Virus record (IMG/VR): IMGVR_UViG_2681813316_000024
Coordinates: 1 to 24,423 of that record
DNA length: 24,423 nucleotides
Reading direction: 5' to 3' (one strand)
Origin: a virus
Lineage: Duplodnaviria; Heunggongvirae; Uroviricota; Caudoviricetes
Program-made: the position numbers and the translations under genes
In this document: in pieces, positions 1 through 24,423 of the stretch
How the letters are laid out: every line of letters begins with the position of its first letter
Numbering within the stretch: the first letter of the stretch is position 1
The notes under the pieces: generated by a model
Seen by the model: only the letters and a program-made list of their open reading frames with translations
What the model was told of the DNA's origin: nothing
Database searches by the model: none

Positions 1-507
1 ATGGCGCAATCACAAGCCGGATTCGGAATGGCTGCATTCTGTGGTAAGCACGAACTCAGCCAGAACGACAAACAAAAGGCTATCAACTATCTGATGCAAT
101 TTGCACACAAGGTATCGGGGAAATACCGTGGTGTGGCAAAGCTCGAAGGAAATACTAAGGCAAAGGTACTGCAAGTGCTCGCAACATTCGCTTATGCGGA
201 TTATTGCCGTAGTGCCGCGACACCGGGCGCAAGATGCAGAGATTGCCACGGTACTGGCCGGGCCGTTGATATTGCCAAAACAGAACGGTGGGGGAGAGTT
301 GTCGAGAAAGAGTGCGGAAGATGCAAAGGCGTCGGCTATTCAAGGATGCCAGCAAGCGCAGCATATCGCGCTGTGACGATGCTAATCCCAAACCTTACCC
401 AACCCACCTGGTCACGCACTGTTAAGCCGCTGTATGACGCTCTGGTGGTTCAATGCCACAAGGAAGAGTCAATCGCAGACAACATTTTGAATGCAGTCAC
501 ACGTTAG
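1..507 (+). CDS. Q: Late-gene antiterminator Q (lambda Q type); ORF starts at window base 1, so the N-terminus is probably cut off
   Basis: 168-aa ORF with Cys-rich zinc-binding motif CRDCHGTGR...CGRCKGVGY; translation matches my recollection of lambda Q almost residue for residue; followed directly by a PR'-like promoter. Confidence 0.85.
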   Translation: MAQSQAGFGMAAFCGKHELSQNDKQKAINYLMQFAHKVSGKYRGVAKLEGNTKAKVLQVLATFAYADYCRSAATPGARCRDCHGTGRAVDIAKTERWGRVVEKECGRCKGVGYSRMPASAAYRAVTMLIPNLTQPTWSRTVKPLYDALVVQCHKEESIADNILNAVTR

Positions 508-3889: not shown

Positions 3890-4384
3890 ATGAATATGGC
3901 AGCACCAAAGGGCAACCGATTTTGGGAGGCCCGCAGTAGTCATGGGCGAAATCCTAAATTCGAATCGCCTGAGGCGCTGTGGGCAGCTTGTTGTGAATAC
4001 TTCGAGTGGGCTGATGATAACCCGCTATGGGAGGGAAAGGTATTTTCATATCAGGGAGAAATAATTAAGGCTAATGTCCCTAAGATGCGAGCCATGACTA
4101 TTTCAGGATTGTGTACCTTCCTTGATATCACCAGGCAAACATGGGGAACCTTCCGGTCAATGGAAGGTTTTTCTGACGTCACATCACGAGCGGAAGACAT
4201 CATCTACGACCAGAAATTCTCTGGCGCAGCCGCTGACCTTCTCAACGCTAACATCATCGCCCGTGATTTGGGCCTCAAAGAGCAGTCGCAAGTTGAAGAC
4301 GTGACACCTGATAAGGGAGATCGCGATAAGCGACGCTCTCGTATCAAGGAGCTATTCAACCGTGGAACTGGACGCGATTCTTGA
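3890..4384 (+). CDS. Terminase small subunit (P22 gp3-like)
   Basis: 164-aa ORF immediately upstream of and overlapping large terminase; N-terminus [29 protein letters not shown] typical of P22-family gp3. Confidence 0.8.
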
Positions 4385-5861
4385 TAACCTGAGCGACGAA
4401 GAGCAAATCGAATTGCTCGAGCTACTCGAAGAAGAAGAGAACTACCGGAACACACACCTGCTATATGAATTTACGCCATACAGCAAACAGCGTGAGTTCA
4501 TCGACGCCGGGCATGACTATCCAGAGCGATGTTTTATGGCTGGTAACCAGCTTGGTAAGTCATTTACTGGTGCTGCTGAAGTCGCGTTTCACCTTACAGG
4601 GCGTTATCCGGGAACAAAAGGCTATCCGGATGATGGTAAATATGGCGGGGAGTGGAAAGGTAAGCGTTTCTATGAGCCTGTTGTCTTCTGGATTGGCGGC
4701 GAGACAAACGAGACGGTAACCAAAACGACTCAACGCATCCTGTGCGGTCGTATCGAAGAGAATGACGAGCCAGGCTACGGTTCCATACCGAAAGAAGACA
4801 TCATTAGCTGGAAGAAGTCTCCTTTCTTTCCGAACCTTGTTGATCACCTTCTGGTTAAGCATCACACGGCTGATGGCGTTGAAGATGGCATTTCAATCTG
4901 CTACTTCAAACCATACTCGCAAGGCCGTGCTCGCTGGCAGGGTGACACAATCCACGGCGTGTGGTTTGACGAAGAGCCACCATACAGCATTTATGGCGAA
5001 GGTCTTACCCGTACCAACAAATACGGGCAATTCTCAATCCTGACGTTTACCCCGCTGATGGGGATGTCTGACGTTGTTACCAAGTTCCTGAAGAATCCCA
5101 GCAAGTCGCAGAAAGTGGTCAACATGACCATCTATGACGCTGAGCACTACACCGACGAGCAGAAAGAGCAAATCATCGCATCCTATCCTGAGCATGAGAG
5201 AGAGGCGCGTGCTCGCGGTATTCCTACGATGGGTAGCGGACGAATCTTCCAGATACCGGAAGAGACGATTAAGTGTCAGCCGTTCGAGTGTCCTGATCAC
5301 TTCTACGTAATTGGCGGGATGGATTTCGGATGGGATCACCCACAGGCGCAGGTTCAGCTTTGGTGGGATAAGGACGCAGACACAATCTACGTTTCACGCG
5401 TGTGGAAGGCGAAAGAAAAAACAGCCGTTCAGGCATGGGGAGCCGTTAAATCATGGGCGCATAAAGTGCCAACAGCATGGCCTCATGACGGAAACCAGCA
5501 TGAGAAGGGCGGTGGTGAGCAGCTCAAAGGGCAGTATGCAGACGCTGGATTTATGATGTTGCAGGAGCATGCGACATGGCCTGATGGCGGTAATGCTGTT
5601 GAGCCTGGCATCACTGAATTGCGAGACATGATGCTCGATGGCCGCTTCAAAGTATTCAACACCTGTGAGCCATTCTTTGAGGAGTTCCGCCTCTATCACC
5701 GTGATGAAAACGGGAAGATCGTCAAGCTTAACGACGACGTTCTCTCAGCCGTTCGCTATGCATACATGATGCGCCGCTTCGCCAAAATGATGCGCGACAT
5801 CAAAAAACCAAAAGAGAAAAAGATACCAGCCCCAATCAGGCCCATCGCACGGAGAACTTAA
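4362..5861 (+). CDS. Terminase large subunit (P22 gp2-like, headful packaging)
   Basis: 499-aa ORF, same length as recalled for P22 gp2; position between small terminase and portal; stop TAA directly abuts portal ATG. Confidence 0.9.
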
Positions 5862-8027
5862 ATGGCCGACGAAAACAGACTCAATTCCATTCTGTGTAAG
5901 TTTGACGCGGACTGGATGGCGAGCGATGAAGCCAGAACCGAGGCGACAAATGACCTGTATTTTAGCCGAGTGTCGCAATGGGATGACTGGCTATCAAACT
6001 ACACTACCCTGCAATATCGGGGACAATTCGATGTTGTTCGCCCGGTGGTCAGGAAACTGGTCGCAGAGATGCGCCGGAACCCTATCGACGTTCTCTTCCG
6101 ACCCAAAGACGGCGCTAATCCTGATGCTGCCGATGTGTTGATGGGAATGTATCGTACTGATATGCGCCATAACACGGCAAAGATTGCCGTTAACGTTGGC
6201 GTTCGTGAGCAGATAGAGTCCGGCGTTGGTGCATGGCGTCTGGTCACCCAGTACGAAGACAACGACCCAACAAGCAACAATCAGGTAATCCGACGCCTGC
6301 CAATCCATGAAGCCTGCTCACACGTCATATGGGACGCCAACAGCAAGCAGATGGATAAGAGCGACGCTAAGCACTGCACGGTGATTAACGCTTTGTCACG
6401 CAATGGCTGGAAAGAGTTCGCAGAGGATTACGGTATTGATCCTGACACCTTGCCATCTTTCCAGAATCCGAACGATACATGGCTGTTTCCGTGGGTATCG
6501 AATGATGTCGTCTACGTCGCTGAGTATTACGAGGTCGAAGAGAAGAAAGAGAAAGTCTTCATCTACCGCGACCCGCTGACAGGTGAGCCGGTAAGCTATT
6601 ACCAGCAGGATATCAAAGACGTCATCGACGACCTGGCTAATCGTGGATTCATTAAGGTAGCAGAGCGCAAGGTGAAGCGTCGGCGTGTGTATAAGTCGAT
6701 CATCACCTGTACGCAGATACTGAAAGACCGCGAGAAGATAGCCGGAGAGCATATTCCAATCGTTCCAGTGTATGGTGAATGGTCATTCGCTGGTGACAAG
6801 GAGTGCTACGAAGGAGTGGTAAGGCTGACGAAAGACGGTCAACGCCTTCGTAACATGATCATGTCGTTCAACGCCGATATTGTTGCTCGTTCACCGAAGA
6901 AGAAACCGACCTTCTTCCCTGAGCAAATCGAAGGCTACGAATACATGTACGGTGGAAATGATGACTATCCGTACTATCTGCAGAACAGGACCGATGAAAA
7001 CGGTAACGACCTGCCGATTGGTCCAATCTCCTACATGGAAAACCCTGAAGTGCCGCAAGCCAACGCTTACATGCTTGAGGCAGCCACCAACGCAGTGAAA
7101 GAGGTGGCTAGTCTTGGCGTGGATGCGCAGGCGGCAAATGGTCAGGTCGCTTTCGATACCGTCAATCAACTGAACATGCGGGCAGACCTTGAGACATACG
7201 TGTTTCAGGATAACCTGGCTACCGCAATGCGACGTGATGGCGAGATTTATGCCTCAATGGTCAACGATATTTATGACGTTCCTCGCCATGTAACGCTGAC
7301 TCTTGAAGACGGAAGCGAGAAAGACGTTCAACTCTACGCGCAAGTTGTAGATTACCAGTCCGGCAATGTGGTCACACTCAACGACATTCGCGGTCGCTAT
7401 GAGTGCTATACAGACGTTGGACCATCCTTCCAGAGTATGAAGGAACAGAACCGCGCAGAGATTCAGGAGTTACTCACCAAGGTTCCACAAGGTACTCCAG
7501 AGTTCCAGATGCTGATGCTGCAATACTTCACGCTGCTTGATGGTAAAGGCGTCGAGATGATGCGAGAGTACGCGAACAAGCAACTGGTGATGATGGGGCT
7601 GAAGAAACCAGAAACACCTGAAGAGATGGAGATGGTACAGCAGGCTCAACAGCAGCCGCAGCAGCCATCAGCAGAGCAAATTCAGGCGCAGGGTATCCTT
7701 CTGCAAGGTCAGGCTGAATTGCTCAAGGCAGAGAACCAACAGGCGCAGATTCAGGTTGAAGCCGCCAAGGTTGAAGCCCAAAACCAACTCAACGCCGCGA
7801 AGATTGCGGAAATCTTCAACAATATGGACCTAGACAAGCAGGCAGAACTGCGTGAGTACCTCAAGCTCGTAGGTCAATTCCAGCAACAGCGCAGCAAAGA
7901 TGCTCGTGCTAACGCTGAGCTGCTTCTTAAAGATGCAGACCAGACTCATTCACAACGCATGGATTTCGCGAATCTTATGCGTCAAGTTCAAATCCCCTCC
8001 GGCGGAGTAGCCGAGACACCTCAATAA
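5862..8027 (+). CDS. Portal protein (P22 gp1-like)
   Basis: 721-aa ORF; long runs match recalled P22 portal ([51 protein letters not shown]); Q/A-rich C-terminal helical barrel. Confidence 0.95.
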
Positions 8028-8040
8028 GAGAGAGTTAACC

Positions 8041-8952
8041 ATGGACCAAACCACCGACATTCAGGCTTCTGAAGAATTAACCCTGCCCGGCAATCATGCA
8101 GCGGCATCTGCTGATGGCTTAGTTGTCGATAATGCCAACGACAACGCAGGTCAGGAAGAAGGCTTCGAGATTGTCCTGAAAGACGATGAGAAACCAAAAC
8201 AAGACCCGGCAACTAATGCTGAATTTGCCCGTCGCCGCATTGAACGCAAACGCCAGCGTGAGCTTGAGCAGCAGATGGAAGCGGTTAAGCGTGGAGAGTT
8301 GCCGGAGCACCTGCGGGTGAACCCTGAGTTACCAAAACAACCAGACCCTAACGATTATCTTTCCGAAGATGCACTGGCTAAGTACGACTATGACCAGAGC
8401 CGCGCACTGGCTGCCTTCCAGCAGGCAAACAGTGAATGGCAGATCAAGGCTATGGACGCACGAAGCCAGGCTGTCGCCGAGCAGGGTCGCAAAACTCAGG
8501 AGTTCACCCAGCAATCAGCGCAATACGTCGAGGCAGCCCGTAAGCACTACGACGCAGCGGAAAAGCTCAATATCCCTGACTATCAGGAGAAAGAGGATGC
8601 ATTCATGCAACTGGTGCCGCCAGCAGTCGGTGCCGACATCATGCGCCTCTTCCCGGAGAAATCCGCCGCTCTCATGTATCACCTTGGTGCTAATCCTGAG
8701 AAAACACGCCAGTTGCTGGCGATGGACGGGCAATCCGCGCTGATTGAACTCACTCGACTGTCAGAACGTTTAACTCTCAAGCCTCGAGCCAAGCCAGTTT
8801 CAGAAGCCCCGTTACCTGATGAACCCATTCAGGGACACGCTGTTGCTGCAAATATTTCTGCGATTGAAAAGCAGATGGAAGCGGCAGCAAACAAAGGGGA
8901 TGTAGAGACATACCGCAAGCTCAAGGCGCAACTGAATAAAGGAATTCGATAA
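8041..8952 (+). CDS. Scaffolding protein (P22 gp8-like)
   Basis: 303-aa ORF matching recalled P22 gp8 ([35 protein letters not shown]..., C-terminal [11 protein letters not shown]). Confidence 0.9.
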
Positions 8953-10247
8953 TGGCATTAAATGAAGGTCAACTGGTCACGTATGCTCTGGATGAAATCA
9001 TCGAAACCATCCAGAACCTGACGCCAATGGCGTCTAAAGTGACAAAATACACCCCTCCGGCAGAATCCATGCAACGTTCAAGCAACACCGTGTGGATGCC
9101 TGTTGAGCAGGAAGCGCCAACTCAGACTGGCTGGGATTTAACTGGCAACGCTACCGGTATTCTGGAACTGTCCGTGAAATGCAACATGGGCGATCCGGAT
9201 AACGATTTCTTCGAGCTTCGTGCAGATGACCTGCGTGATGAGCGTTCTTACCGTCGCCGCATCCAGGCATCAGCTAAAAAACTGGCGAATAACATTGAGT
9301 CAGCAATTGCCAAACAGGCAACTGAAATGGGCTCACTTGTTGTTCACGATACCCGAGCAATTGGTCCATCTACTGGCCTGTCTGGCTGGGATTTTGTGTC
9401 TGATGCAGAGCGCCTGATGTTCTCCCGTGAGCTAAACCGCGATATGGGCATCAGTTACTTCCTGAACCCTGACGATTACCGCAAAGCAGGCCGCAACCTG
9501 GTAGATGGTGACATCTTCGGGCGCGTTCCTGAAGACACGTATCGCAACGGTACTATTCAGCGTCAGATTGCTGGCTTTGATGAAATTCTTCGCTCACCGA
9601 AACTTCCGGCAGTTACCAAGTCAGCCGCTACTGGTGTAACTGTTTCTGGTGCGCAGAAGTTTAAGCCGCAGGCATACACCCTTGATACCGATGGTAACAA
9701 AGAGAACGTCGACAACCGTGTTGCAACGGTGACCGTATCCTCCACCACCGGATTTAAGCGCGGCGACAAAATCAGTTTCACTGGTGTGAAATTCCTGTCT
9801 CAGATGGCGAAGAACGTGCTGACTGATGATGCGACTTTCTCAATCACCCGTGTGATCGATGGTACTCACATCGAAATCACGCCGAAGCCGATTGCGCTTG
9901 ATGACGTTTCACTGACAAAAGAAGAGAAGGCTTACGCTAATGTAAACACCTCTCTTGCTGATGCCACCCCGGTAAACGTTCTGAACGTGGCAACAACCAC
10001 CGCTAACGTGTTCTGGGCTGATGACTCAATCCGCCTGCTATCTCAGCCGATCCCGGTAACCCATGAACTGTTTGCTGGCATGAAAACGTCTTCCTTCAGC
10101 ATTCCTGGCATTGGTGTTAACGGCATCTTCGCAACGCAGGGTGATATCAACACTCTGTCTGGTAAGTGCCGTATTGCTGTGTGGTATTCAGCATGTGCTG
10201 TACGACCAGAGGCAATTGGTGTTGGTCTGCCTAACCAGACTGCGTGA
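8952..10247 (+). CDS. Major coat protein (P22 gp5-like)
   Basis: 431-aa ORF; start overlaps scaffold stop (TAATGG); motifs [35 protein letters not shown] match recalled P22 coat. Confidence 0.95.
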
Positions 10248-10254
10248 TAACCAG

Positions 10255-10278
10255 AGGGAGCTTCGGCTCCCTTTTTTA
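10255..10278 (+). terminator. Intrinsic terminator after coat gene
   Basis: Stem GGGAGC (10256-10261) / GCTCCC (10266-10271), loop TTCG (UUCG tetraloop), then TTTTTT (10272-10277). Confidence 0.65.
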
Positions 10279-10291
10279 TCTGGAGACAAAC

Positions 10292-10528
10292 ATGACACAC
10301 ATGATCTTTCGTCATGGCGACATGAAGAAGTGGAAAGGCGTTGGATACGACTTTGAAATCGTGAAAGCCGAAGAGCTTCAGGAATATCTGGATGCTGGCT
10401 GGTTTGCACATCCCGATGACCTTCTGAAGGATGTTGCAGAGCCAGAGCCAGAGCCAGAAGAAAAACAGAGTAAAAAGCCTGGTCGAAAACCTAAGGCGGC
10501 AGCAGATGAACCTGACAACGAAGGGTGA
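10292..10528 (+). CDS. Hypothetical small protein (between coat and gp4)
   Basis: ATG at 10292 preceded by GGAG (10282-10285); 78 aa, acidic PEPEPE low-complexity tail; stop overlaps gp4 start. Confidence 0.45.
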
Positions 10529-11006
10529 TTTAGTCCTTGCAGCATTACGTAAGCTCGGTGTTGCATCAAATGCCACGTTAACCGATGTCGAACCGCAGTC
10601 TATGGAAGACGGCGTCAACGACCTTGAAATGATGATGGCTGAATGGCTTGGCGGTGATGTGTCACCTGGTATCAACGTTGGCTACATTTTTGCTGATGCA
10701 GATGTCGCTCCGGATCCGGGCGATGAGCACGGTTTATCAAATAACGCTATCAATGCCGTCATTTTCAACCTTGCCTGCCGCATTGCTCCGGATTATGCGC
10801 TGGAATCGTCAGCAAAACTTATAACCACTGCCAGATACGGGAAAGAGCGACTCGTCAAACTGTCTGCAATGGACAGAGCAAAAGCCGCTAAATGTAAGTC
10901 CGGTTATCCAAACCGTATGCCTGTTGGTAGCGGTAACCAGTTGGCGAAGTGGAACGGTTGGAATTACTTCCACCGAAAGGAACCTTGCGATAACGGGAGC
11001 GAATAA
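10506..11006 (+). CDS. Head completion / tail accessory protein (P22 gp4-like)
   Basis: 166-aa ORF from ATG 10506; [25 protein letters not shown] and [13 protein letters not shown] match recalled P22 gp4. Confidence 0.85.
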
Positions 11007-12425
11007 ATGCCGATTCAGCAACTTCCGCTTATGAAAGGTGTCGGCAAAGACTTTCGAAACGCCGACTATATCGACTATCTGCCAGTGAATATGCTGGCTA
11101 CGCCCAAAGAAATCCTGAACAGCAGCGGATATCTTCGCTCATTCCCGGGCATTGCCAAACGTTCTGATGTGAATGGTGTATCGCGCGGTGTCGAGTACAA
11201 CATGGCGCAGAATGCTGTTTATCGCGTTTGCGGTGGCAAGTTGTATAAGGGCGAAAGCGAGGTCGGTGATGTTGCCGGAAGTGGTCGCGTATCAATGGCG
11301 CATGGTCGAACATCTCAGGCGGTAGGCGTTAATGGTCAACTGGTCGAGTATCGCTATGATGGCACGGTTAAAACAGTCTCAAACTGGCCTACAGACAGCG
11401 GATTCACTCAGTATGAGTTAGGTTCAGTCCGCGACATTACACGCTTACGTGGGCGTTATGCGTGGTCAAAAGACGGCACGGATTCATGGTTTATCACTGA
11501 CCTTGAAGACGAATCGCATCCTGACCGTTACAGCGCACAATATCGCGCAGAATCGCAGCCGGACGGTATCCTCGGCATCGGAACATGGCGAGACTTCATC
11601 GTCTGCTTTGGTTCATCGACGATTGAATATTTTTCCCTGACAGGTGCAACCACTGTTGGTGCCGCTTTGTATGTCGCACAGCCATCGCTGATGGTGCAAA
11701 AAGGCATCGCCGGGACTTACTGCAAAACGCCATTCGCTGATTCGTATGCGTTCATCAGCAATCCGGCAACAGGTGCGCCGTCTGTGTATATCATCGGTTC
11801 CGGTCAGGTATCACCAATCGCCAGCGCGAGCATTGAGAAAATACTACGCTCCTACACTGCTGATGAACTGGCTGATGGTGTGATGGAATCGCTGCGATTT
11901 GATGCGCATGAACTGCTGATTATCCATCTTACGCGTCACGTCCTCGTGTACGACGCATCTTCAAGCGCCAATGGTCCGCAATGGTGTGTACTGAAAACAG
12001 GCCTGTATGACGATGTGTACCGCGCTATCGACTTCATTTACGAAGGCAATCAGATAACGTGCGGCGATAAGCTGGAATCGGTTACCGGCAAATTGCAGTT
12101 CGATATCAGCAGCCAGTACGACAAACAGCAGGAACACCTGCTGTTTACTCCGTTGTTCAAAGCAGATAACGCCAGAGTTTTCGACCTTGAAGTTGAATCT
12201 TCAACTGGCGTTGCGCAGTATGCTGACCGCCTTTTTCTCTCTGCAACCACTGACGGCATCAATTACGGGCGTGAGCAGATGATTGAGCAGAATGAACCGT
12301 TCGTTTACGACAAACGCGTTTTGTGGAAGCGAGTAGGGCGCATCAGGAAAAATGTCGGCTTCAAATTGCGCGTTATCACTAAGTCACCTGTCACTCTGTC
12401 AGGCTGCCAGATAAGGATTGAGTAA
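11007..12425 (+). CDS. Tail accessory protein (P22 gp10-like)
   Basis: 472-aa ORF, same length and order position as P22 gp10. Confidence 0.85.
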
Positions 12426-13126
12426 TGGTTGATTCATCACTGAATAATCCTGTCGCGGTTCAGGCTACGCGCCTTGATGCTTCAATTTTGCCACGCAATA
12501 TATTCAGCCAGTCTTACATGCTGTATGTCATAAATCAGGGTGCTGATGTTGGCGCAATTGCCGGGAAGGCAAATCAGGCTGGTCAGGGCGCTTACGATGC
12601 TCAGGTGAAAAACGATGAACAGGACGTCGAGCTGGCAGATCACGATGCAAGAATCACCGCAAACACAAAAGCGATAAATCTCCTTGAGGTCAGGTTAACA
12701 ACCGCCGAAGGGAAGATAGTCGTACTACGTAGCGATGTTGATTACTTGCTGGATGAGGTTATCGATATTCAGGCGCATCTGGTCACTGTTGACCAAAGAC
12801 TGGATGGCGTAGAAAGCGATGTATCTGACATTAAGAGTGATTACGTATCGAAAACCGTAACCGAATCGCAGTCTCTTGCGTTACCGCTGGATGTAAAAAC
12901 ATCATATTCAGTTGATGGAATTCAGGTTATTGGAGCAAGAAATACCGGATGGACTGCAGCCACAGGTACACCTCTTCTTGGCTCATTCAACGCTAACCAG
13001 TCATACACAGTCGGCACTACGTACACACAATCCGAAGTCGCAGCACTCGCTACAGGTTTGCAGCAGGCGCGGCAGCGTATTCTGGCGCTTGAAACGGCAC
13101 TTAGATTACATGGGCTGATTGACTGA
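12425..13126 (+). CDS. Tail needle / cell-puncturing protein (P22 gp26-like)
   Basis: 233-aa ORF; N-terminus [19 protein letters not shown] and C-terminus ALR.HGLID match recalled P22 gp26; coiled-coil heptads. Confidence 0.9.
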
Positions 13127-13581
13127 TGATTACATTCAAACCAACGCGAAACATCGACCTGATAGAAGCCGTAGGAAATCACCCTGACATTATCGCCGGG
13201 AGCAACAACGGTGATGGATACGACTACAAACCTGAATGCCGTTACTTTGAGGTTAACGTGCACGGGCAGTTCGGCGGAATTGTTTACTATCAGGAGATTC
13301 AGCCGCTGACCTTTGATTGCCACGCCATGTACCTGCCAGAGATTCGCGGATTCAGCAAGGAAATAGGGCTGGCGTTCTGGCGATACATTCTGACTAACAC
13401 CACCGTTCAGTGCGTCACATCGTTCGCTGCACGCAAATTCCGCCACGGGCAGATGTACTGCGCAATGATTGGCCTTAAGCGTGTAGGAACCATCAAGAAA
13501 TACTTCAAAGGCGTGGATGACGTGACATTTTACAGTGCTACACGCGAAGAACTAATCGACTTCCTGAATCACGGGAGATAG
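13126..13581 (+). CDS. Head assembly protein (P22 gp14-like)
   Basis: 151-aa ORF in the gp26-to-gp7 position of the P22 gene order. Confidence 0.75.
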   Translation: MITFKPTRNIDLIEAVGNHPDIIAGSNNGDGYDYKPECRYFEVNVHGQFGGIVYYQEIQPLTFDCHAMYLPEIRGFSKEIGLAFWRYILTNTTVQCVTSFAARKFRHGQMYCAMIGLKRVGTIKKYFKGVDDVTFYSATREELIDFLNHGR

Positions 13582-13583
13582 CC

Positions 13584-14276
13584 ATGTTATATGCATTTAA
13601 GCTGGGCAGAAAACTGCGCGGCGAGGAACCTTATTGCCCTGAAAAAGGCGGGAAAGGTGGCAGCTCTGATAAAAGCGCAAAGTATGCAGCAGAAGCTCAG
13701 AAGTATGCCGCAGACCTGCAAAATCAGCAGTGGCAGACGATCATGAAAAACCTTGCTCCGTTCACGCCTCTTGCGGAGCAGTATGTTAACCAGCTTCAGA
13801 ACCTTTCCAGTTTAGAAGGTCAGGGGCAGGCACTTAATCAGTATTACAACTCTCAGCAGTATAAAGACCTTGCAGGTCAGGCTCGTTACCAGAGTCTTGC
13901 TGCTGCGGAGGCGACGGGTGGACTTGGTTCGACAGCCACAAGCAATCAACTGGCTACGATCGCGCCGACACTCGGTCAGTCTTGGTTATCAAATCAGATG
14001 AGCAATTACAACAATCTGGCAAACGTTGGGCTTGGTGCGCTGCAAGGTCAGGCAAACGCCGGGCAGACGTACGCCAACAACATGAGCAGCATTGCACAGC
14101 AAAGCGCAGCTCTTGCCGCTGCTAATGCCAATAAACCATCAAGTCTTCAGACCGCAATTAGCGGTGGCACGTCTGGTGCGATTGCCGGTGCAGGTCTTGC
14201 CAGCCTTTTGGAAACATCAACGCCTTGGGGCGCTGGCATTGGTGCTGGTATCGGATTGCTTGGCTCGTTGTTTTAA
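13584..14276 (+). CDS. Ejection (injection) protein (P22 gp7-like)
   Basis: 230-aa ORF, Gly/Ala/Gln-rich, hydrophobic C-terminus; position in P22 order. Confidence 0.8.
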   Translation: MLYAFKLGRKLRGEEPYCPEKGGKGGSSDKSAKYAAEAQKYAADLQNQQWQTIMKNLAPFTPLAEQYVNQLQNLSSLEGQGQALNQYYNSQQYKDLAGQARYQSLAAAEATGGLGSTATSNQLATIAPTLGQSWLSNQMSNYNNLANVGLGALQGQANAGQTYANNMSSIAQQSAALAAANANKPSSLQTAISGGTSGAIAGAGLASLLETSTPWGAGIGAGIGLLGSLF

Positions 14277-14285
14277 GGGGTAATC

Positions 14286-15692
14286 ATGGCTACTTGGCAA
14301 GGAACAAACGGCGGATTGTTGGCTGGTATCGGCGGCGTCAACTCAAACGCTCCGAGCGTAAATGACATCGGCAATACGCTTCAGCTTATCAGGCAGAACA
14401 ATGATATTGAGCGTTCAGGCGCTAACAATGTTGGGCTGACTGCTTTGCAAGGCCTTTCAGGTATTGCGGGGGTGTTTCAGCAGGAAAAGCAGGCTCAGCG
14501 GCAGAAAGAATTTCAGCAGGCATACGCTAATGCTTATGCGTCTGGTGATCGCGGTGCTTTGCGTCAGTTAGCTACTGAATATCCAGACCAGATTGAATCC
14601 GTTCGTAAAGGCATGGGATTCATTGATGAAGACCAGCGCAATTCCATCGGTACCTTAGCGGCTGGCGCTCGCCTTGCGGCATCGTCTCCAGAAGCGATGC
14701 AATCATGGCTGCAAAACAACGCCAAGGAACTGACTCGCGTAGGTGTTGACCCTAATAACGTTGCTCAGATGTATCAGCAGAATCCTTCAGGATTTGGTGA
14801 GTTTGTTGATCACCTTGGGATGGCTGCTCTCGGTCCGATTGACTACTTCAATGTTCATGACAAGATGGCTGGTCGTGAGATTGACCGAGGCAGGCTGGCA
14901 GAGACAATCCGCAGCAATCGGGCTGGAGAAGCACTTCAGGCGAGAGGGCAAAACCTTTCCTATCAGTCAGCAATGACTGGGCACAATATCGCAGCACAAC
15001 GCTTGGCTCTGGATCAGCAAGAGTTCGGGTTTAAGATGCAGCAAGCGCAGGAAAAGGCTCAGCAGTTGATTAGCGAAGCACCTAAGCTGTCAGTAAACAT
15101 GGAAAAAGGCATCGAGACGGCTGTAAACAATGCTACAGCATCATCAAACTCAGCCAATTCTATGAGTGCGCTTGCTCAACAGTTCAGAGCAGAAAAACCA
15201 ACGACAGGTTTGTTCGGTAACGCACAGAACATGTTCGCAAAACTTACCGGAAGCGATACAACATTGCGTGATTTGCGCATCCGCCAAAATGCCCTTGTTA
15301 ACAGTCAGGTTCTTAAATTCCTACCTCCAGGCCCCGCAACGGATAAAGACGTTGAGATCGTTCGGCAGGGGGCACCAACTGACATGGATAACCCTGAGAC
15401 GGTCGCAAGATGGCTTGATGCGATGGCAAACCTTGAGCGACGAAACGCGCAGTTTAATGAGTTTAAAGCCGAGTGGATGAGCGCGAATGGCAATCCAGGA
15501 CAATCGCGTAATGGCGGTCAGATATTGGGGTTGGATGTTAAAAAAGGTGAATCATTGGGGAGTGCCGTTAAGCGGTATATGTCAATGAATACTGACGCAG
15601 CGCCAGCACAAGATTCGACACCTTCAGGAGAACCACGGAATCAGGTTGGATCATATACCTCAAAATCAGGCATTCAATTTACGGTGGAATGA
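14286..15692 (+). CDS. Ejection protein (P22 gp20-like)
   Basis: 468-aa ORF following gp7 homologue; size and position match P22 gp20. Confidence 0.8.
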
Positions 15693-17920
15693 TGAAAGTA
15701 ACTGCAAACGGTAAGACATTTACCTTCCCTGATGGTACGAGCACGGAAGATATTGGCACCGCCATTGATGAGTATTTTGCTGGTCAGGCTGTTCAGCAAC
15801 AAACAGTTAATCAGGCCAATAATGAACCAGCACGGGAAGAACCATCATTGATGCAACAAGCTGGCGATTGGCTCACTGGTGGTCAAAGTGCAGGGCAAAT
15901 TGCAGAACAGGCTGGTCGTGGTCTGGTAAACATACCATTTGACGTATTGCAGGGTGGCGCAAGTCTGATTAATGCAATCAGTCAGGGGCTTGGGGGGCCA
16001 AAAGTATTGGATGATGTTTATCGTCCAGTAGACAGACCGACAGACCCCTACGCGCAAGCTGGAGAGTCAATAGGCGGTTATCTTGTTCCTGGAGCAGGTG
16101 TAGCTGGAAACATGGTCATTGGTTCTCTCGCTGACGCGGCGAATCAACGGGGTGATTTTGCCGAAAATGCCGCTATTAATGCCGGACTTAACATTGCTAC
16201 GCATGGCCTGATAAATGGCGTTACCCGTGGTGTTCGTGGTGCATCAAATATAATTAGTGGCAATAAAACATCTGCACAGAGAGCGACCACTGCGCCAACA
16301 GAAACATCACCATTCTCAGGTGATGCCGCTGCAGCAACAAATCCTGAGATTCATGCCGCAGAGGCAAGAGTAGCACAAGGTGTACCAATGATGCCTGCGA
16401 CGAGGAACCCAGAGGAAGTCGTTCGCACAGTAGCAGCACAAAAAAGGCCAAATCTCGCTTCATCGCTTGATGAACTAGATATCAATCCTCAGGCTGAAGT
16501 TCTGGAGTCTGCTGAAAGGCTTAATGTTGATTCATTACTCCCTTCACACTTTTCCGGGAACGAGCAATACAAGGCAGTTGAGCAAGCAATCAAGTCCCGT
16601 GCGGGTTCTGCTCTACAGGTGCAGGAAAATGAAGCAATCAGGCAGCTAGCACAGGGCGCGGGGGAGATAATTGATCGCGTTTCCGGTGCAAAAGATGCTC
16701 TTGGTATGAGCGACAAGTTTATTGATACGGTCAATGGAAGAATGTCTGCGCTGATGAAACGAAGCGACCAGCTTTATCGCAATGTTGAAAAGGCGATGCC
16801 TGCAGGTGCAAAAATTGATGCGCCATCAACAAGGTCAATGCTCAAACAGGTGGCAGAAGATCTTGGCGGGATGAAAAACCTTGACCCTATTGAAAAGAGA
16901 GTCTTTCGGGCAGTTAATCCAGGCAAGAACGGCGCATTAACTTATGCAAATCTCAATAAGCAACGACGACTTGTTGGTGATGCACTTCATAAGAATTCTG
17001 GACCATATAAAGATGCTGATCGCGCTGCTTTATCGAGGCTTTACGGTTCGCTCGCCGATGATCAAAAGGCGGCGCTGTCAGAGACAAATGCATTACGTGA
17101 TTTTGAAGTTGCTCAGAGGCTTGTTCAGATGCGAAAAAGCATGGAAGAGCAAATGATTAATCTAACTGGCAGAACGCTGAACGGTGATGTTTCTCGCAAA
17201 GCAACTACAGCACTACAGGCAATGTCGAAAGGCGATGCCAAAGGATTTCGTGAATTGATGCAAAACACGCCGTCCAGGAAGCTAAGAACCGAGCTACTGG
17301 GAACAGGTCTTCGGGATATGCTTTCGAACGGAAAACGTGGCGCTGATTTTAATCCTGCAGGGTTTGCTGACTGGTATCAAAACATGTTAGCAAACGGGCA
17401 GATGCGCAATCTTGCCCGACATTTACCAAAAGAGACTATGTCAGGTCTGAACGATGTATATAAGGTCGCAAAGGCTATCAAAGACGCAAAATCTTACGAG
17501 ATAACTACAGGAAGACTAAACGAGTTCGTCAAACGGTTTAATCGCGTCACTGCGGCAAATGAATTTGTTGCTAACCATGCCCAACGCATTGGCACTGCGG
17601 TTGGTTCAACTGTGTCAGGACCGTTCAGTGCAGTAGGTGCTGTTGCTGGGTCAGAAATTGGGGCAAAAGTCGCCAGCAAAATCAGGGTGATGGGCGGCGC
17701 TGCATCAATGGAATCTGCAGAAAAGCTAATTAGCTCACCAGAATTCCAGAAAGCAGCAAGGCTGGCAGTAAAACAAGCACCAGAAAGCATCGTTGATACA
17801 ACTGTAAGACGCTCTTCTGCTTGGCGCTCGTTTTACAACTCACTTCCAGAATCAGATAAGAAAACCATATCAAGGCTAGGCATCATGTACTGGATGAACA
17901 GTGATGATAACCAGAAGTAA
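15689..17920 (+). CDS. Ejection protein (P22 gp16-like), extended
   Basis: 743-aa ORF overlapping gp20 stop; last gene before tailspike as in P22-like phages; Ala/Gly-rich segments. Confidence 0.75.
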
Positions 17921-18198
17921 CGGAAAGCCACGGATGGTTAGTTGCAGTCTTTTTTATATAAATCTCTGTCCATAAATCCTCCTGTTTACCAAAACTATAT
18001 CAAACTTTAACGCAATGCTGCGCAACTTAAGTGACTGTCAGGTTGATAACAGACACTCTTTTTTGCATGATTCCTTTAGACCATCACAATTGATGAAGAA
18101 TCATGAAAAGAAGAACTCTTCTAAAGTCTTTGCTCGGCCTGACGTCACTCTTACCAGTTAAGTTTGCAGCATCTCAAAACCTGCAAGGTAAAAGTATA

Positions 18199-20436
18199 AT
18201 GTCAGACATTACACCCAATGTTGTAGTGAGTATGCCTTCGCAACTCTTCACTATGGCTCGTTCTTTTAAAGCCGTAGCTAATGGAAAGATTTATATCGGG
18301 AAAATTGACACTGACCCGGTAAACACTGAAAACCAGATTCAGGTTTATGTAGAGAACGAAGATGGTTCTCACGTTCCTGTTTCGCAACCAATCATCATTA
18401 ACGCTGCTGGATATCCGGTATATAACGGACAGATTGCCAAATTCGTAACCGTGCAAGGCCATTCTATGGCTGTTTATGATGCGTATGGTGCGCAGCAGTT
18501 CTATTTTTCGAATGTGCTGAAGTATGACCCTGACCAACTCAGGCAAGATCTTGCATCTCAAGGAGGTGTTAATCTGGTAAACGGAGCTATCTCACAGGAA
18601 GATCTTGTTTTGCAGTCGATCACAAAAATTCCAAGTTATGATAATTCTAACGTAGTCCAGGCGTGGCGCGATAGTGTTGCGACCTACGGGTATGTTTACT
18701 TCTCTAATCATTCAAAAAATCAGATGGTGTACACCGTACCGTCTACAGCTGCTAACGCTTCTTTCCTTGCGAACAGTAAAGTAATCATTGATAAAAATGT
18801 CACCCTGAGATTCGACAGTGATCTGTACTCACTGTTTAAATCGTTGCAGTACGAGGGGGAGGGTACGTTTGAATTTACGCACCTGAACTTTAAAGCAACC
18901 GGTGGAGAAGTGGATTATCTGGCTAAGCAGGCCATCCTCAACCGAAACCCTATTCGCATGAAGCGAGTGGAATGGTCAGATTGTAAAGTTTATTCCATAA
19001 ATGGTGACACGTTCTTCTATGAAGGTGAAGTCACCATATCCTCAGATAGCGCAGCTATCTTCCCCTTAACTACTGACCGTACAACAGGCCTGTTCGCACC
19101 AATAGATATTGGAGAGCATATTTCTGCACATATTCGTATGGAATCTCAGGCCGCCTCAGAAGTTGGGATTGTTCTGCGATGCTCTGGTGGTTGGATGATG
19201 TTCTATGGGGCACCAGGTGCTACACAGTGGTCTTATAGACAGAAACCAATTGGTGGTCCAGTAGCAGAAGGAACTCCATTCCCGCTGCCAGGAGGTTTAC
19301 TGTCGTACGCCCCGGGCAAAGCAACCGTTGGCGTATCACTGCAAGGTAAAAACTGGGCGCAGATAACGATGAATGGCGTTGGGATACGTTTGCCCTTTGA
19401 TACTGCTGATGTAGGGGATGTATACGAAGTTGGGTTTGTTGCACTGACCACGGCATCTGGAGGTTCTGCGCGTGTAACTGGATTATGCAGCTACACCTCT
19501 GATAATGGCGTGCACGGTAAGCCTCCACTTAATATCCTTATCCACGGTGATAGTACAGCTGAGGATTTCATTTCCGCGTTCAGCTCGTACATTCCGCAAT
19601 TAATGGATGGAGCGAACGGCCACCGTTCACATAGCATTGTAAACAAGGCAGTTGCCGGACAGACAATGAGGCAACAGTTAGATCTCCTGAAGGCTCAGGG
19701 GCCGGGTGATGCTTACATCGTTATTATGGTTGCCGGAACTAACGAAGGGCAGGCAAACCAAAACGGCGATTATATGGCGTCATTGATAGATGAGTTTGTC
19801 TTATATTGCAATGGCCTTGGTCGTATCCCTGTTTGGGTTGAGCCGTGGATGTGGTATAGCCAGTCATTTATTGGAGGGGCTGGCCAGCCATCTTCTAACT
19901 ACGACGGTGTCGCAGAGTTGCGAGAAGCTGGTAAACGCCAGATGATGAAATATGGCAATAACGTCATTTGTGTAACAACAACTCACCAGCTCCCGGCCCC
20001 ATATCCAGAGTATTTCAATACGCAATACGACCCACTTCTGCGTGATGACATTCACCAAAGCCAGTTAGGGTATCGTCTGTATGCGGAAATTATCTGCTCT
20101 GCCATTATCGACTGGTGGTCGCGTGTTGATTACACGCCAAGAGCAGCTGTTCAATGGTGGGCTGGAACAAACGTAACAGTACAGGCACCGTCAAGTTTAA
20201 CTGCCAATTCAATTAATATTAAACTGGCAGCCACTTCATTTGCGAATGGTAATACTGTTCTAACGCTGCCAAGGTGGTGTAGACCAACAGTAACAAAAAA
20301 TGTCCCTGTACCGTTCACTGCTGATGGAATATCTTACGGTATGGCGATGGCAACAATAAGCGCATCAACCGGGTCGATAACAATTAATGGATCTACTACA
20401 GCCTCACCAATATTTTACATTGATGCTTCCTGGTAG
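18199..20436 (+). CDS. Tailspike: P22 gp9-like head-binding domain fused to C-terminal SGNH/GDSL esterase domain
   Basis: ATG 18199 gives [11 protein letters not shown]...[20 protein letters not shown]...VLKYDPDQ (P22 tailspike N-domain). C-terminal part has SGNH blocks: G450-D451-S452-T (19546-19557), VAGQT, A512-G-T-N515-E (19732-19746), D616-D-I-H619 (20044-20055). Confidence 0.85.
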
Positions 20437-20461: not shown

Positions 20462-21157
20462 TTACTTCACATGTTTATTAATCTCTCTCATCCAAACGGC
20501 ATAGCCATTTTTATTTAAATGCACTCCATCATCAAAGTACAATTCAGATTTTTTATCAGATAAAAAATCTGCAGGAACTTCTATTATATTGCAGTTAACT
20601 ATGCGACTACATGTTCTATCAATAATAGAGTTAATCATGCTTATTCTTGAATTGACATGGTCTACGTCTTTTCTTGCCCCGCTTATGATTGGCAAAACTT
20701 TTAATGCATAAATATTATCAACCTTTGATACACTCTTAAGCAGTTTGTCATAATCATCAAATATTTCCTCTTCGGTTTTCGCACCCATCGCATCGTTAAC
20801 TCCACCTTCAATTATCGCAGCTTTATATCCAGACGCCCCATAATTTTCTGATAGAGTTAGGATCTGATGTATAGAGTATCCTCCGACCCCCATATTAACA
20901 TATTTAAAGTTTAACCCATATGGTGACATTCCTTGTATGAGCGAGTCGCCATAAACCACAATGTCGCCGTCAGCTTGATTAGCATTCATTTTTTTAAAAT
21001 CTAGCATCACAGCCTGAAAGTCGTTAACTTTTTTTTGAGATAAATAATTTCTAATTGAACGAACAGACAATACTATAATAACTATTGCAATCAGAATAAA
21101 CAGCATTGCCAAATATTTATTTGCTTGAGACTTTCTATTTGTTTGTTTTGACTTCAT
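20462..21157 (-). CDS. Membrane-anchored SGNH/GDSL hydrolase (putative carbohydrate O-acetyl transfer/esterase domain protein)
   Basis: 231 aa; N-terminal TM helix YLAMLFILIAIVIIVLSV; block I VVYG70-D71-S72-L (Ser codon 20942-20944), block II GVGG, block III GGVND, block V DDGVHLN; good RBS AAGGAAA; AT-rich. Confidence 0.8.
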   Translation of the reverse strand: MKSKQTNRKSQANKYLAMLFILIAIVIIVLSVRSIRNYLSQKKVNDFQAVMLDFKKMNANQADGDIVVYGDSLIQGMSPYGLNFKYVNMGVGGYSIHQILTLSENYGASGYKAAIIEGGVNDAMGAKTEEEIFDDYDKLLKSVSKVDNIYALKVLPIISGARKDVDHVNSRISMINSIIDRTCSRIVNCNIIEVPADFLSDKKSELYFDDGVHLNKNGYAVWMREINKHVK

Positions 21158-21241
21158 TGCATTTTCCTTTTAATAAGGTTTAAGGTTAAAAATATATTTA
21201 CGCTTCAAATCAACGAATTGAGAAAATTATTCAGCCAACCA

Positions 21242-21520
21242 CTAACTAGACTTGCAATCTAATCTTATATATGATCTGAGTAAGAGTGTAAAAATCCGCT
21301 TAATCCTTCTTAAGTAAAAATCGGAAAAAGAAAATTTACCGCTATTTAAATTTTTAAAAATAATACTTGAAATTAAAAGGCTAGATATTATGAAAAATAA
21401 ATCAAACCCATTGAACTCTCCAGAAAATGCGCTTGGGAAAGCGTGAAACATCACAACAGCGACTGCTCTTAAACCATCTATACCAGCTCTATACTTTATC
21501 ATTTTTATTGTCCAATTCAT
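21242..21520 (-). pseudogene. Truncated N-terminal fragment of a second AT3-family acyltransferase
   Basis: 92-aa ORF with AT3 N-terminal signature YRAGIDGLRAVAVVMFHAF...GFDLFFIIS...FYLRRIKRIF, stops after about 90 residues; no convincing RBS. Confidence 0.5.
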
Positions 21521-21816
21521 CTACAGTGAAAGAGCAAAGAAAAACAATGCAATATATCTCATGTGACTACCCCTAAAATAAATTTAATGATAATAACATC
21601 ATGAGGATAAATTTAGAAGTGGGAAGATCGGAAATGCTCATTGAGCAGCAGAAAAAATATCACTGACTCTGTATACACATACAGTATTTTTTGTCTGTTA
21701 TTGATCATTGGATACTTGAGCCTAGCGTAAAAGTAATATGAATGATACAGTATGCTTATATAATTGATTTTTGCTCTCGGTGTAAGTTCGGATTGTATTA
21801 TATAACCAGAAAATAT

Positions 21817-21835
21817 CCCCAGAACTAAGCTGGGG
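21817..21835 (-). terminator. Candidate intrinsic terminator downstream of AT3 gene
   Basis: CCCCAG (21817-21822) / CTGGGG (21830-21835) inverted repeat with 7-nt loop; on - strand followed by AUAUUUU. Confidence 0.35.
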
Positions 21836-21849
21836 ATTCATGTCATATG

Positions 21850-22890
21850 TCAGCTTGCTAGTGCGATCTTCCTAAGCCTGTGACCTATATTTATAGATGG
21901 TTTTTCAATTACCTTATAAGAAATAGTTGCTAGTGCGATCGTAGCTAATAGGTATAAAACAAAAATAATAAAATTAAAATCTGTGTCCATGTCTATACTG
22001 ACAGATACAATCTCTAAAAAGAATGGGTGAATCAAGTATACAGAGTAACTTATCGATCCCAGGAAAACCAATAATCCTACATTCAATTTTACCCGTGTAG
22101 TGAGCAATAGCGTCAATACTATGCCTGTAAGATAGCTAGCAATATAGGAGGAAGCATTTTCCCCATGCCCATAGTCTTTATTGTAGGACATTAAGCAAAT
22201 CGGAGCAATCGCCACTAGGAATGTTATTAAAAATACAATGCACATATTTCTTTCTGATCTCGATGCAATCCCAATGCTCACTGAACGCCATAAGCTACCA
22301 AAGAACATTAATGACATAGCTAGCGGTATTGCCACAGGAACTTTTTTATCAAGAACGAATCTCACGTATGAGAAAGCAAGAGCGGTTGCAATAAGTCCTA
22401 TAGAAATTAAAAATAAAGAAACCTTACTCTTTAATAAATTTACTTTGAAAAGAAACGCACAGGAAGCATAGAAGAACAACTCAATTATTAGCGTCCAATA
22501 AACACCAAACATATCTGGAGATCTCAGTAAAGATTGAAGCATGGTAATATTAGACAACAGAGTTCTTATATCAAGTGGTCTATGAGTTACAAACAAAAAA
22601 GTAAAGGCCGCCAGAAATACTGAAAACCAGTAAGCGGGATATAGTCTAAAAAACCTTGATATAATGAACCCGGATATCGCTCTTTTCCCTTCCTTTAGGC
22701 TGTAAGGTATTACCATGCCACTTAACACAAAGAAGCAAACAACACCAACCTGACCAAAGTTAACATGCTTAAATAAAAAACTGTTATGCAATGGTGTTCG
22801 CTCTATGAAATGTGCACATGCAACCATCAGGGCTGCAAGTCCACGCAAAGAGTCTAGGAATTCTAGACGATTTCCATTTCTTATAGACAT
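21850..22890 (-). CDS. AT3-family integral-membrane acyltransferase (Oac-like putative O-antigen O-acetyltransferase)
   Basis: 346 aa, about 10 hydrophobic segments; N-terminal signature LDSLRGLAALMVACAHF...GVVCFFVLSGMVI...RFFRLYPAYW typical of acyltransferase family 3; between tailspike and int as oac is in Sf6; AT-rich. Confidence 0.85.
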   Translation of the reverse strand: MSIRNGNRLEFLDSLRGLAALMVACAHFIERTPLHNSFLFKHVNFGQVGVVCFFVLSGMVIPYSLKEGKRAISGFIISRFFRLYPAYWFSVFLAAFTFLFVTHRPLDIRTLLSNITMLQSLLRSPDMFGVYWTLIIELFFYASCAFLFKVNLLKSKVSLFLISIGLIATALAFSYVRFVLDKKVPVAIPLAMSLMFFGSLWRSVSIGIASRSERNMCIVFLITFLVAIAPICLMSYNKDYGHGENASSYIASYLTGIVLTLLLTTRVKLNVGLLVFLGSISYSVYLIHPFFLEIVSVSIDMDTDFNFIIFVLYLLATIALATISYKVIEKPSINIGHRLRKIALAS

Positions 22891-23267: not shown

Positions 23268-24423
23268 TCACTTCACCTTTTCATCAAGCCAATCCGCCCA
23301 CCACTGCATCATTTCTCTGCGCTTATCGAGATACTGAGCGTGGTTGTAAATCCCGCGCACAGATCCGCCGTTGGCATGTGCCAGTTGCACTTCAATAGCG
23401 TCAGCAGGCCATTCGTGCTCGTTCATAATCGTGCTGAATTCATGCCTGAATCCGTGACCGCTTTCCAGACCTTCATAGCCGATTTGTTTGATCACAAGCA
23501 GTACAGCGTTCTGGCAAATTGGCTTCTTCTTATCGTTGCGCCCGGCAAAAACAAACTCTGACACTGGTTTAGTGATTGAGCTTAGCGTAGTGAGAAGTTC
23601 AATCACCTGGTCTGACATAGGAACCACATGAATTTTTCGACCCTTCATCACACTGGCGTCGATGGTGATAATCCTGTTTTCAAAATCGACGTTCTTCCAT
23701 AGCATGGAGCGAAGCTCTTTCGTTCTTAGGGCTGTGTAGCGCAAAACTTTAGTCGCAATGAGCGATACGATGCTCCCTGAAAATGTTGCCAGTGCTTTGT
23801 TGAATGCAGGGATCTGGTCTGCAGGAAGAAACGGGAAGTTCTTCTTGCGGTATCCCTTCATGGCGTCAGCAAGGTCAGGTGCCGGGTTATATTTAGCCCT
23901 ACCAGTGACAATAGCGTAACGGAAAACCTCGCCGCATCTTCTGCGGGCTTTATTTGCTCGCTCCATTGCACCGCGATCTTCAAATCTGCGGATTACTTCC
24001 AGTAGTTGCATCGGCTCAATATCCTGAATTTCAAGACCGCCGATGATGGGTAAAATGTCGTCATCAAACATTTTTGCAAGTTCATTTGCATAGCCCTGAC
24101 CAGACTTGCTTCTTGTGCTCGTACCATTCCTTGTAAATGGCGCTAAAGGAATTGTTGTTAGACGAAGCCTTTTTCGCCTTTACCGGATCGATGCCAACCG
24201 AGATGTCTTTCCTCGCAGTCCATGCTTTATCCCTTGCCTCTTGCAAAGTCATAAGCGGATATTTTCCGACGGTCAGGATTTTCTCCTTACCGTCAATCTT
24301 GTAGCGAAGCTGCCATACCTTTTTCCCTGACACAGGGACATAAAGGTACAGGCCATTACCATCGAGTAGGCGGTATGGTTTTTCTTTCGGCTTTGCTGCT
24401 TCAATCTGCTTAACGGTGAGCAT
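23268..24423 (-). CDS. int: Tyrosine integrase (P4-type, arm-binding N-domain), interrupted by a frameshift near 24072-24100; start codon at window edge
   Basis: Two consecutive - strand ORFs (24082..24423, 113 aa, arm-type domain; 23268..24071, 267 aa, catalytic domain with R...HGFRHEF...RGIYNHAQY Tyr region). The 267-aa frame read upstream gives ...QGYANELAKMFDD continuous with the N-terminal part. Confidence 0.75.

Follow-up and report, generated by a model that had tools for sequence, protein, structure and literature searches.

A 2-bp deletion splits the IntS-family integrase gene of an argW-associated, P22-like prophage in a probable private lesion of one Escherichia coli isolate

Two neighboring minus-strand open reading frames (ORFs), of 113 and 267 codons, close the 24,423-nucleotide stretch of DNA analyzed here (the window), and comparison with intact homologues confirmed, at the sequence level, that they are two frames of a single IntS-family integrase gene. 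The window corresponds to bases 1-24423 of the E. coli draft contig CYBQ01000006.1 (GCA_001284265.1, 181 kb), with coinciding gene coordinates, and represents the late-gene half, on the int side, of a P22-like prophage (Lederbergvirus, Sf6/HK620-type) integrated at argW. The split is probably due to a real 2-bp deletion within int of this argW-integrated Sf6/HK620-like prophage, one that is private to a single E. coli isolate and arose very recently, and the prophage is predicted to be unable to excise. An element of this kind might be called otherwise functional, a description that holds for the 24 kb seen, i.e., for the late half only. The event is of an ordinary, already-known kind, namely a pseudogene of a well-characterized integrase family in a well-known phage type, and does not point to a new system; as a routine pseudogene, a frameshifted prophage integrase has little meaning beyond this isolate. 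The features concerned are listed in Table 1.

Table 1. Features of the split integrase gene and of its surroundings. Positions refer to the window unless residues are indicated.
Feature	Position	Strand	Description
Late operon	3890..20436	+	Terminases, portal, scaffold, coat, gp4/10/26/14, ejection gp7/20/16, tailspike
Acyltransferase-3 family gene, putative O-antigen acetylase, intact	21850..22890	-	346 aa, 100% identical to WP_001317235.1 (PigCaeca_1)
Integrase 3' fragment	23268..24071	-	267-aa ORF; native residues 119-385, starting MFDDDILP...
Stranded native-frame codons 111-118 (GYANELAK)	24072..24094	-	Native-frame translation in neither ORF
2-bp deletion junction	24095..24096	-	Codon 110 (GTA, Val) without TA
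Integrase 5' fragment	24082..24423	-	113-aa ORF; native residues 1-109 plus 4-residue out-of-frame tail GLCK
Arm-DNA-bind_3 (DUF4102, PF13356)	Residues 2-86 of the 113-aa ORF		Pfam, E = 2e-26, complete
Intact IntS layout	Residues 2-86; 93-188; 199-365		Pfam: Arm-DNA-bind_3; PF22022 core-binding; PF00589 catalytic

Reading frames and domains of the split integrase

The start ATG of the 113-aa ORF coincides with the exact window end (24423, minus strand). Its product terminates in ...KQVWSGLCK*, encoded by ...YEHKKQVWSGLCK-TGA, with the stop codon (24082-24084) right after the out-of-frame tail, and the ATG of the 267-aa ORF (24071) is located 10 bases past this stop, in the other frame. An earlier note on this DNA had placed the arm-type and catalytic parts of the integrase in different minus-strand frames, as the two ORFs bear out, and had read the catalytic frame upstream of its ATG as ...SGQGYANELAKMFDD, which we also obtained. 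It had further proposed that a single indel near 24072-24100 separates both parts. In a four-way alignment with the intact integrases of the PigCaeca_1 prophage, Sf6 and HK620, exactly one indel was found, at 24095/24096 and thus within the proposed interval. An indel does split the integrase, but its description needed refinement, since two bases rather than one are missing and the break interrupts the core-binding domain instead of separating two domains. At the junction, in codon 110 of 385, TCAGTAGGC is changed to TCAGGGC: the intact codons are TCA GTA GGC, and the lost bases are TA. Nine native residues (110-118) are consequently absent from both split products. When TA is put back, which adds Val110, a 385-aa protein results that is found verbatim in public data.

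Apart from the lesion, the gene is highly conserved. The native part of the 113-aa ORF is identical (109/109) to the intact IntS of PigCaeca_1, of IME10 and of the sister contig described below, and the 267-aa ORF is identical to the intact IntS of the sister isolate over residues 119-385. At the DNA level, the integrase gene is 99.7% identical to its PigCaeca_1 prophage counterpart and 94-97% identical to relatives in Sf6, HK620, CUS-3, IME10 and others; "prophage integrase IntS" is the annotation in about 1,850 complete E. coli records. By these alignments, the split integrase is a pseudogene of the IntS / P4-like heterobivalent tyrosine integrase family, and the two "integrase" coding sequences of the record (CTU18767.1 and CTU18758.1) are the halves of this one pseudogene. 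Because the frame shifts at codon 110, normal translation cannot yield a full-length integrase.

In IntS-type, heterobivalent enzymes, the N-terminal domain binds arm-type sites, while binding and recombination of core sites are functions of the C-terminal part (PMC2951348). The 113-aa product comprises the entire arm-binding domain and extends ~17 residues into the core-binding domain. The match of the 267-aa ORF to the 96-position PF22022 core-binding profile is limited to positions 28-96, compared to positions 1-96 in the intact protein, while the catalytic domain is complete by profile (PF00589, E = 3.7e-39, positions 2-170 of 172), with E305Q as its sole difference from the common allele P0031. 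Judged by these profiles, the break at residue 110 is within the central core-binding domain and not at a domain border, since PF22022 spans residues 93-188 and the NMR structure of the K-12 CPS-53 integrase (PDB 2KJ8) spans residues 87-197.

We also inspected the signals that might rescue expression across the break. Within 25 nt ahead of the ATG that opens the 267-aa ORF, no Shine-Dalgarno-like sequence was present, and no canonical X XXY YYZ slippery heptamer (for a -1 shift) was found at the shift site, where the only recoding-like feature is an AAA-UGA with AGGG 6 nt upstream. That the gene is still functional, either through +1 frameshifting at AAA-UGA-A (24082-24087) or through two cooperating polypeptides, is a reading to which we give hardly any credence. 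A lysine codon followed by UGA, with AGGG at that distance, loosely resembles the +1 site of prfB, and the stop-to-ATG distance of only 10 nt makes re-initiation conceivable. However, the spacing and the P-site codon of the prfB site are unlike those found here. A +1 shift would yield a 384-aa Int in which VGYAN is replaced by GLCK, that is, with an altered core-binding domain, and a frameshift is used by none of the about 1,800 homologues. A programmed ribosomal frameshift of the prfB or IS-transposase type was rejected since, besides the missing slippery heptamer, the shift is not conserved (0/1,833 records; the sister is in frame). As regards a two-piece enzyme, neither the catalytic fragment of lambda Int alone nor its wild-type N64 and C65 parts supplied as separate polypeptides gave any attP/attB recombination (0% in both cases; PMC9791396). 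The split described here also cuts the core-binding domain, part of which is removed, and this candidate was discarded as well.

Distribution of the deletion and the case for a real mutation

The 80-bp stretch around the lesion was present in 1,833 complete E. coli records, none of which carried the deletion; the best identity was 97.6%, corresponding to 80 matches in 82 columns when the 2-bp gap is counted. Searches with the exact 36-mer junction gave no match in the GTDB species representatives, IMG/VR or the JGI metagenomes. The exact 113-aa and 267-aa products co-occurred on two contigs only, CYBQ01000006.1 and one from the independent Logan assembly of ERR137790, which we infer to be the read set behind GCA_001284265.1. 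The two contigs were identical over all of the roughly 14,400 bases compared, junction included, and neither assembly showed a contig break or bubble at the junction.

These data bear directly on whether the real gene might be intact and the gap produced by base-calling, assembly or polishing, as the earlier note had offered as an option. The lesion is confined to the data of one isolate, a near-clonal sister carries the intact gene, and the source is a draft assembly with a contig break inside the prophage, all of which would fit such an artefact. Nevertheless, the identical junction was recovered in two different assemblies, which agree over about 14 kb, and the deletion site is neither a homopolymer nor a tandem repeat nor a contig end. 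Furthermore, no other indel distinguishes this DNA from PigCaeca_1 over 8.8 kb of common prophage sequence, or from the sister over 14.4 kb, which indicates that the assembly is not generally indel-prone. An assembler artefact is thus unlikely and a platform artefact improbable, and we consider a sequencing or assembly error of any kind an unlikely explanation overall.

A second split gene was observed in the chromosomal flank outside the window, where yfdF (L004 6431-7526) is divided into ORFs of 37 and 224 aa. Relative to the intact PigCaeca_1 gene, a 35-bp stretch is duplicated in tandem (around L004 6672-6741) and one base is inserted (L004 6537). We considered this split as a possible sign of an indel-prone assembly and rejected it as such, given that it consists of a duplication and an insertion and that yfdF is also annotated as frameshifted in the complete genome SCZE5; this counterpart likewise counts against an artefact in int.

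The E305Q substitution (GAG to CAG at window position 23513, int codon 305) occurred in none of the 1,665 complete E. coli records matching that stretch. The repaired protein with Q305 occurred elsewhere only on a Logan contig of 24,138 bp from SRR11236251, which has the same argW flank, the same prophage end and an intact 385-aa integrase. Over 14,453 aligned bp, this contig showed just two differences from that of the window isolate, namely the TA indel and a synonymous SNP within the acyltransferase gene. Full-text literature searches on ERR137790 and SRR11236251 returned no publication. By this alignment, SRR11236251 represents a near-clonal sister with the intact, ancestral int allele, and it follows that the deletion is private to the window isolate and very recent. 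The same comparison disposed of the notion that E305Q is a sign of relaxed constraint or poor sequence, as the intact sister shares Q305, which makes it a lineage marker. Short IntS fragments present in the 90% cluster were also considered as a base rate of independent truncation; they end in native sequence and look like contig-end partials, and gave no such rate.

The prophage and its attachment region

In the parent contig, an intact tRNA-Arg(CCT) gene (argW) ends 162 nt upstream of the int ATG, and repeated GGGTAAAA/TTTTACCC motifs (TAAA-type arm repeats) are present. Past the window, the contig runs through attL, argW, yfdC, mlaA, yfdF, fadL and fadIJ. The adjacency to argW, with attL between the tRNA gene and int, is the arrangement that characterizes the IntS family. 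The recombination module is common to KplE1, HK620, Sf6 and CUS-3, and IntS binds arm sites in attL and thereby represses its own promoter (PMC2951348). Within int, CATTTTACCCA (24047-24057, minus strand) follows the deletion at a distance of about 40 nt and is unaltered by it. It matches a repeat that the HK620 record annotates as belonging to attP, and it is similar to the TTTTACCC arm-type motifs found just ahead of the int ATG.

The late operon is transcribed towards int, attL and argW. The remaining phage genes in the window, roughly 20, are full length when compared with the plaque-forming phage IME10 or the PigCaeca_1 prophage. This applies to the lysis genes (holin, 107/107 aa; lysozyme, 158/158; Rz, 145/145), to packaging (small terminase, 164/164; large terminase, 499/499), to the head proteins (portal, 721/721; scaffold, 303/303; coat, 431/431) and head completion proteins (gp10, 472/472; gp26, 233/233; gp14, 151/151), to the ejection proteins gp7 (230/230) and gp16 (743/743), to the tailspike (777/777) and to the surface-modification module (SGNH hydrolase, 231/231; acyltransferase, 346/346).

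The left end of the window (1-507, plus strand) starts inside the Q antiterminator gene, with a 168-aa ORF that equals the C-terminal 168 residues of IME10 Q, for which a 207-aa ORF and a 270-aa annotated coding sequence exist. Since the contig starts in Q, the draft breaks within the prophage, and the early half (immunity, the recombination directionality factor RDF and attR) must be on another contig.

The prophage is a mosaic. The N-terminal half of gp20 (14286-15692, plus strand) is 77% identical to that of IME10 or 50% to that of PigCaeca_1, and the tailspike (18103-20436, plus strand) is common to IME10 only over the ~130-residue head-binding domain, while that of PigCaeca_1 is 99.4% identical. 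No record in the phage and complete E. coli collections covered at least 80% of the window. With regard to the PigCaeca_1 prophage itself, the only RefSeq annotation at L001 18506-20737 is an incomplete lytic transglycosylase pseudogene, where we found an uninterrupted 743-aa ORF, 99.9% identical to the gp16-like ejection protein of the window; judging by this ORF, the pseudogene call seems to reflect a quirk of the annotation and not a real loss of the gene.

Between the tailspike and int (20462-22890, minus strand) are the acyltransferase-3 gene and a separate gene for an SGNH/GDSL hydrolase (231 aa, 20462-21157), parted by a spacer of ~690 bp with a 92-aa ORF (21242-21520). The hydrolase, like the acyltransferase, is 100% identical to a PigCaeca_1 prophage protein. 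At the equivalent place, Sf6 has an acyltransferase (oac) only, and the two genes may, by their sequences, form a split two-gene O-antigen acetylation module.

The position of this module next to int, whose inactivation would stabilize it, recalls the other option of the earlier note, that of a domesticated conversion element. Here, the loss of int would have been selected because it fixes the O-antigen-modifying acyltransferase and SGNH hydrolase genes in the chromosome. We regard domestication as very unlikely. The lesion was found in a single isolate and is not lineage-wide, with int being intact in the sister and in the 99.7%-identical PigCaeca_1 and LR-06 prophages. In addition, no structural or lytic gene in the window has decayed, lysis, head and tail genes alike, and a full lytic program in a non-excising prophage would be costly. 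Moreover, KplE1/CPS-53, the classic case at argW, shows the reverse situation, in which the CI module is missing and the int/RDF module works (PMC2951348). The earlier reading of domestication is thus not supported by these results, although its narrower part, a prophage unable to excise, is the most likely consequence of the deletion.

Predicted consequences and comparison with known systems

Heterobivalent integrases need the arm-binding and catalytic parts on one chain, which leads to the prediction that self-excision is lost and the prophage locked in. By analogy with the lambda Int fragments mentioned above, we expect the integrase to be null and the prophage not to excise unaided. The 267-aa catalytic ORF is probably poorly made and inactive, as it has no ribosome-binding site and is missing the first 27 core-binding profile positions. 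The 113-aa product, in which the arm-binding domain is whole, may retain binding to the P' arm sites, with which the int promoter overlaps in attL. Some E. coli genomes harbor 2-3 IntS-type copies, and another integrase of this type, if encoded elsewhere in the genome, could complement the defect in trans.

P22 mutants with int or xis deletions do not excise and replicate in situ, and the location of pac in terS results in unidirectional headful packaging (PMC8575938). With lysis, head, tail and O-antigen-modification genes intact, in situ replication would likewise be expected upon induction of the prophage studied here. Packaging would then start at pac (3890-4384), within the small-terminase gene, and proceed in headful units (about 44 kb in P22) across int towards argW-yfdC-mlaA, fadL and beyond. 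Given that the late operon is oriented towards int, attL and argW, the DNA packaged upon induction should comprise part of the prophage, followed by yfdC, mlaA and fadL, and the expected output would be transducing particles rather than viable phage.

A more elaborate role for the fragments, in which the free 113-aa product acts as a repressor or decoy at attL/attR, or in which a trickle of integrase arises via +1 recoding at AAA-UGA, seems extremely improbable to us. If the repressor or decoy reading were true, the int promoter would be kept shut and excision would be blocked even with a related integrase supplied, turning an intact headful-packaging prophage into a dedicated lateral-transduction engine downstream of argW. 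On our preferred reading, a recent inactivating deletion, the practical consequence is that prophage-prediction tools would score the element as intact though it probably cannot excise. The isolate and its near-clonal sister, int-broken and int-intact, respectively, also make up a natural near-isogenic pair for the study of locked-in P22-like prophages in E. coli, which could serve to measure the effects of excision loss on phage yield and on lateral transduction of the argW-yfdC-mlaA-fadL side.

The closest known systems are the argW-specific P4-like heterobivalent tyrosine integrases, i.e., IntS of K-12 KplE1/CPS-53 and Int of HK620, Sf6 and CUS-3. The integrase described here shares with them the three-domain layout, the adjacency to argW and the attL arm sites overlapping the int promoter, but differs in that the ORF, continuous over 385 aa in those elements, is split at codon 110. 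KplE1/CPS-53, a cryptic element, occupies the same site and uses the same integrase family; it is a remnant without CI but with working IntS and TorI, whereas the window prophage has kept all visible late genes and lost Int.

With regard to the state of the integrase, the situation is similar to that of lambda Int N64 plus C65 in that arm binding and catalysis are assigned to separate polypeptides. The arm-binding fold family is PF13356 in our case, in contrast with lambda Int, so that the lambda evidence comes from a different arm-domain family. Compared to N64/C65, the split is also a worse one, as the break falls within the core-binding domain and nine residues are gone from both products.

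In terms of the predicted behavior, the prophage resembles Mud-P22 and the P22 delta-int and delta-xis derivatives, which are also P22-like headful (pac) phages with a complete late region and a lost excision route, a loss that is predicted in our case. The known outcome in those systems is in situ (escape) replication with unidirectional packaging of the adjoining chromosome (PMC8575938). Unlike these P22 prophages, which were engineered, the element in this isolate carries a spontaneous point lesion, and we infer its behavior by analogy. The attP side of int is opposite to that of P22, and for this reason packaging would be expected to cross int and enter argW and yfdC.
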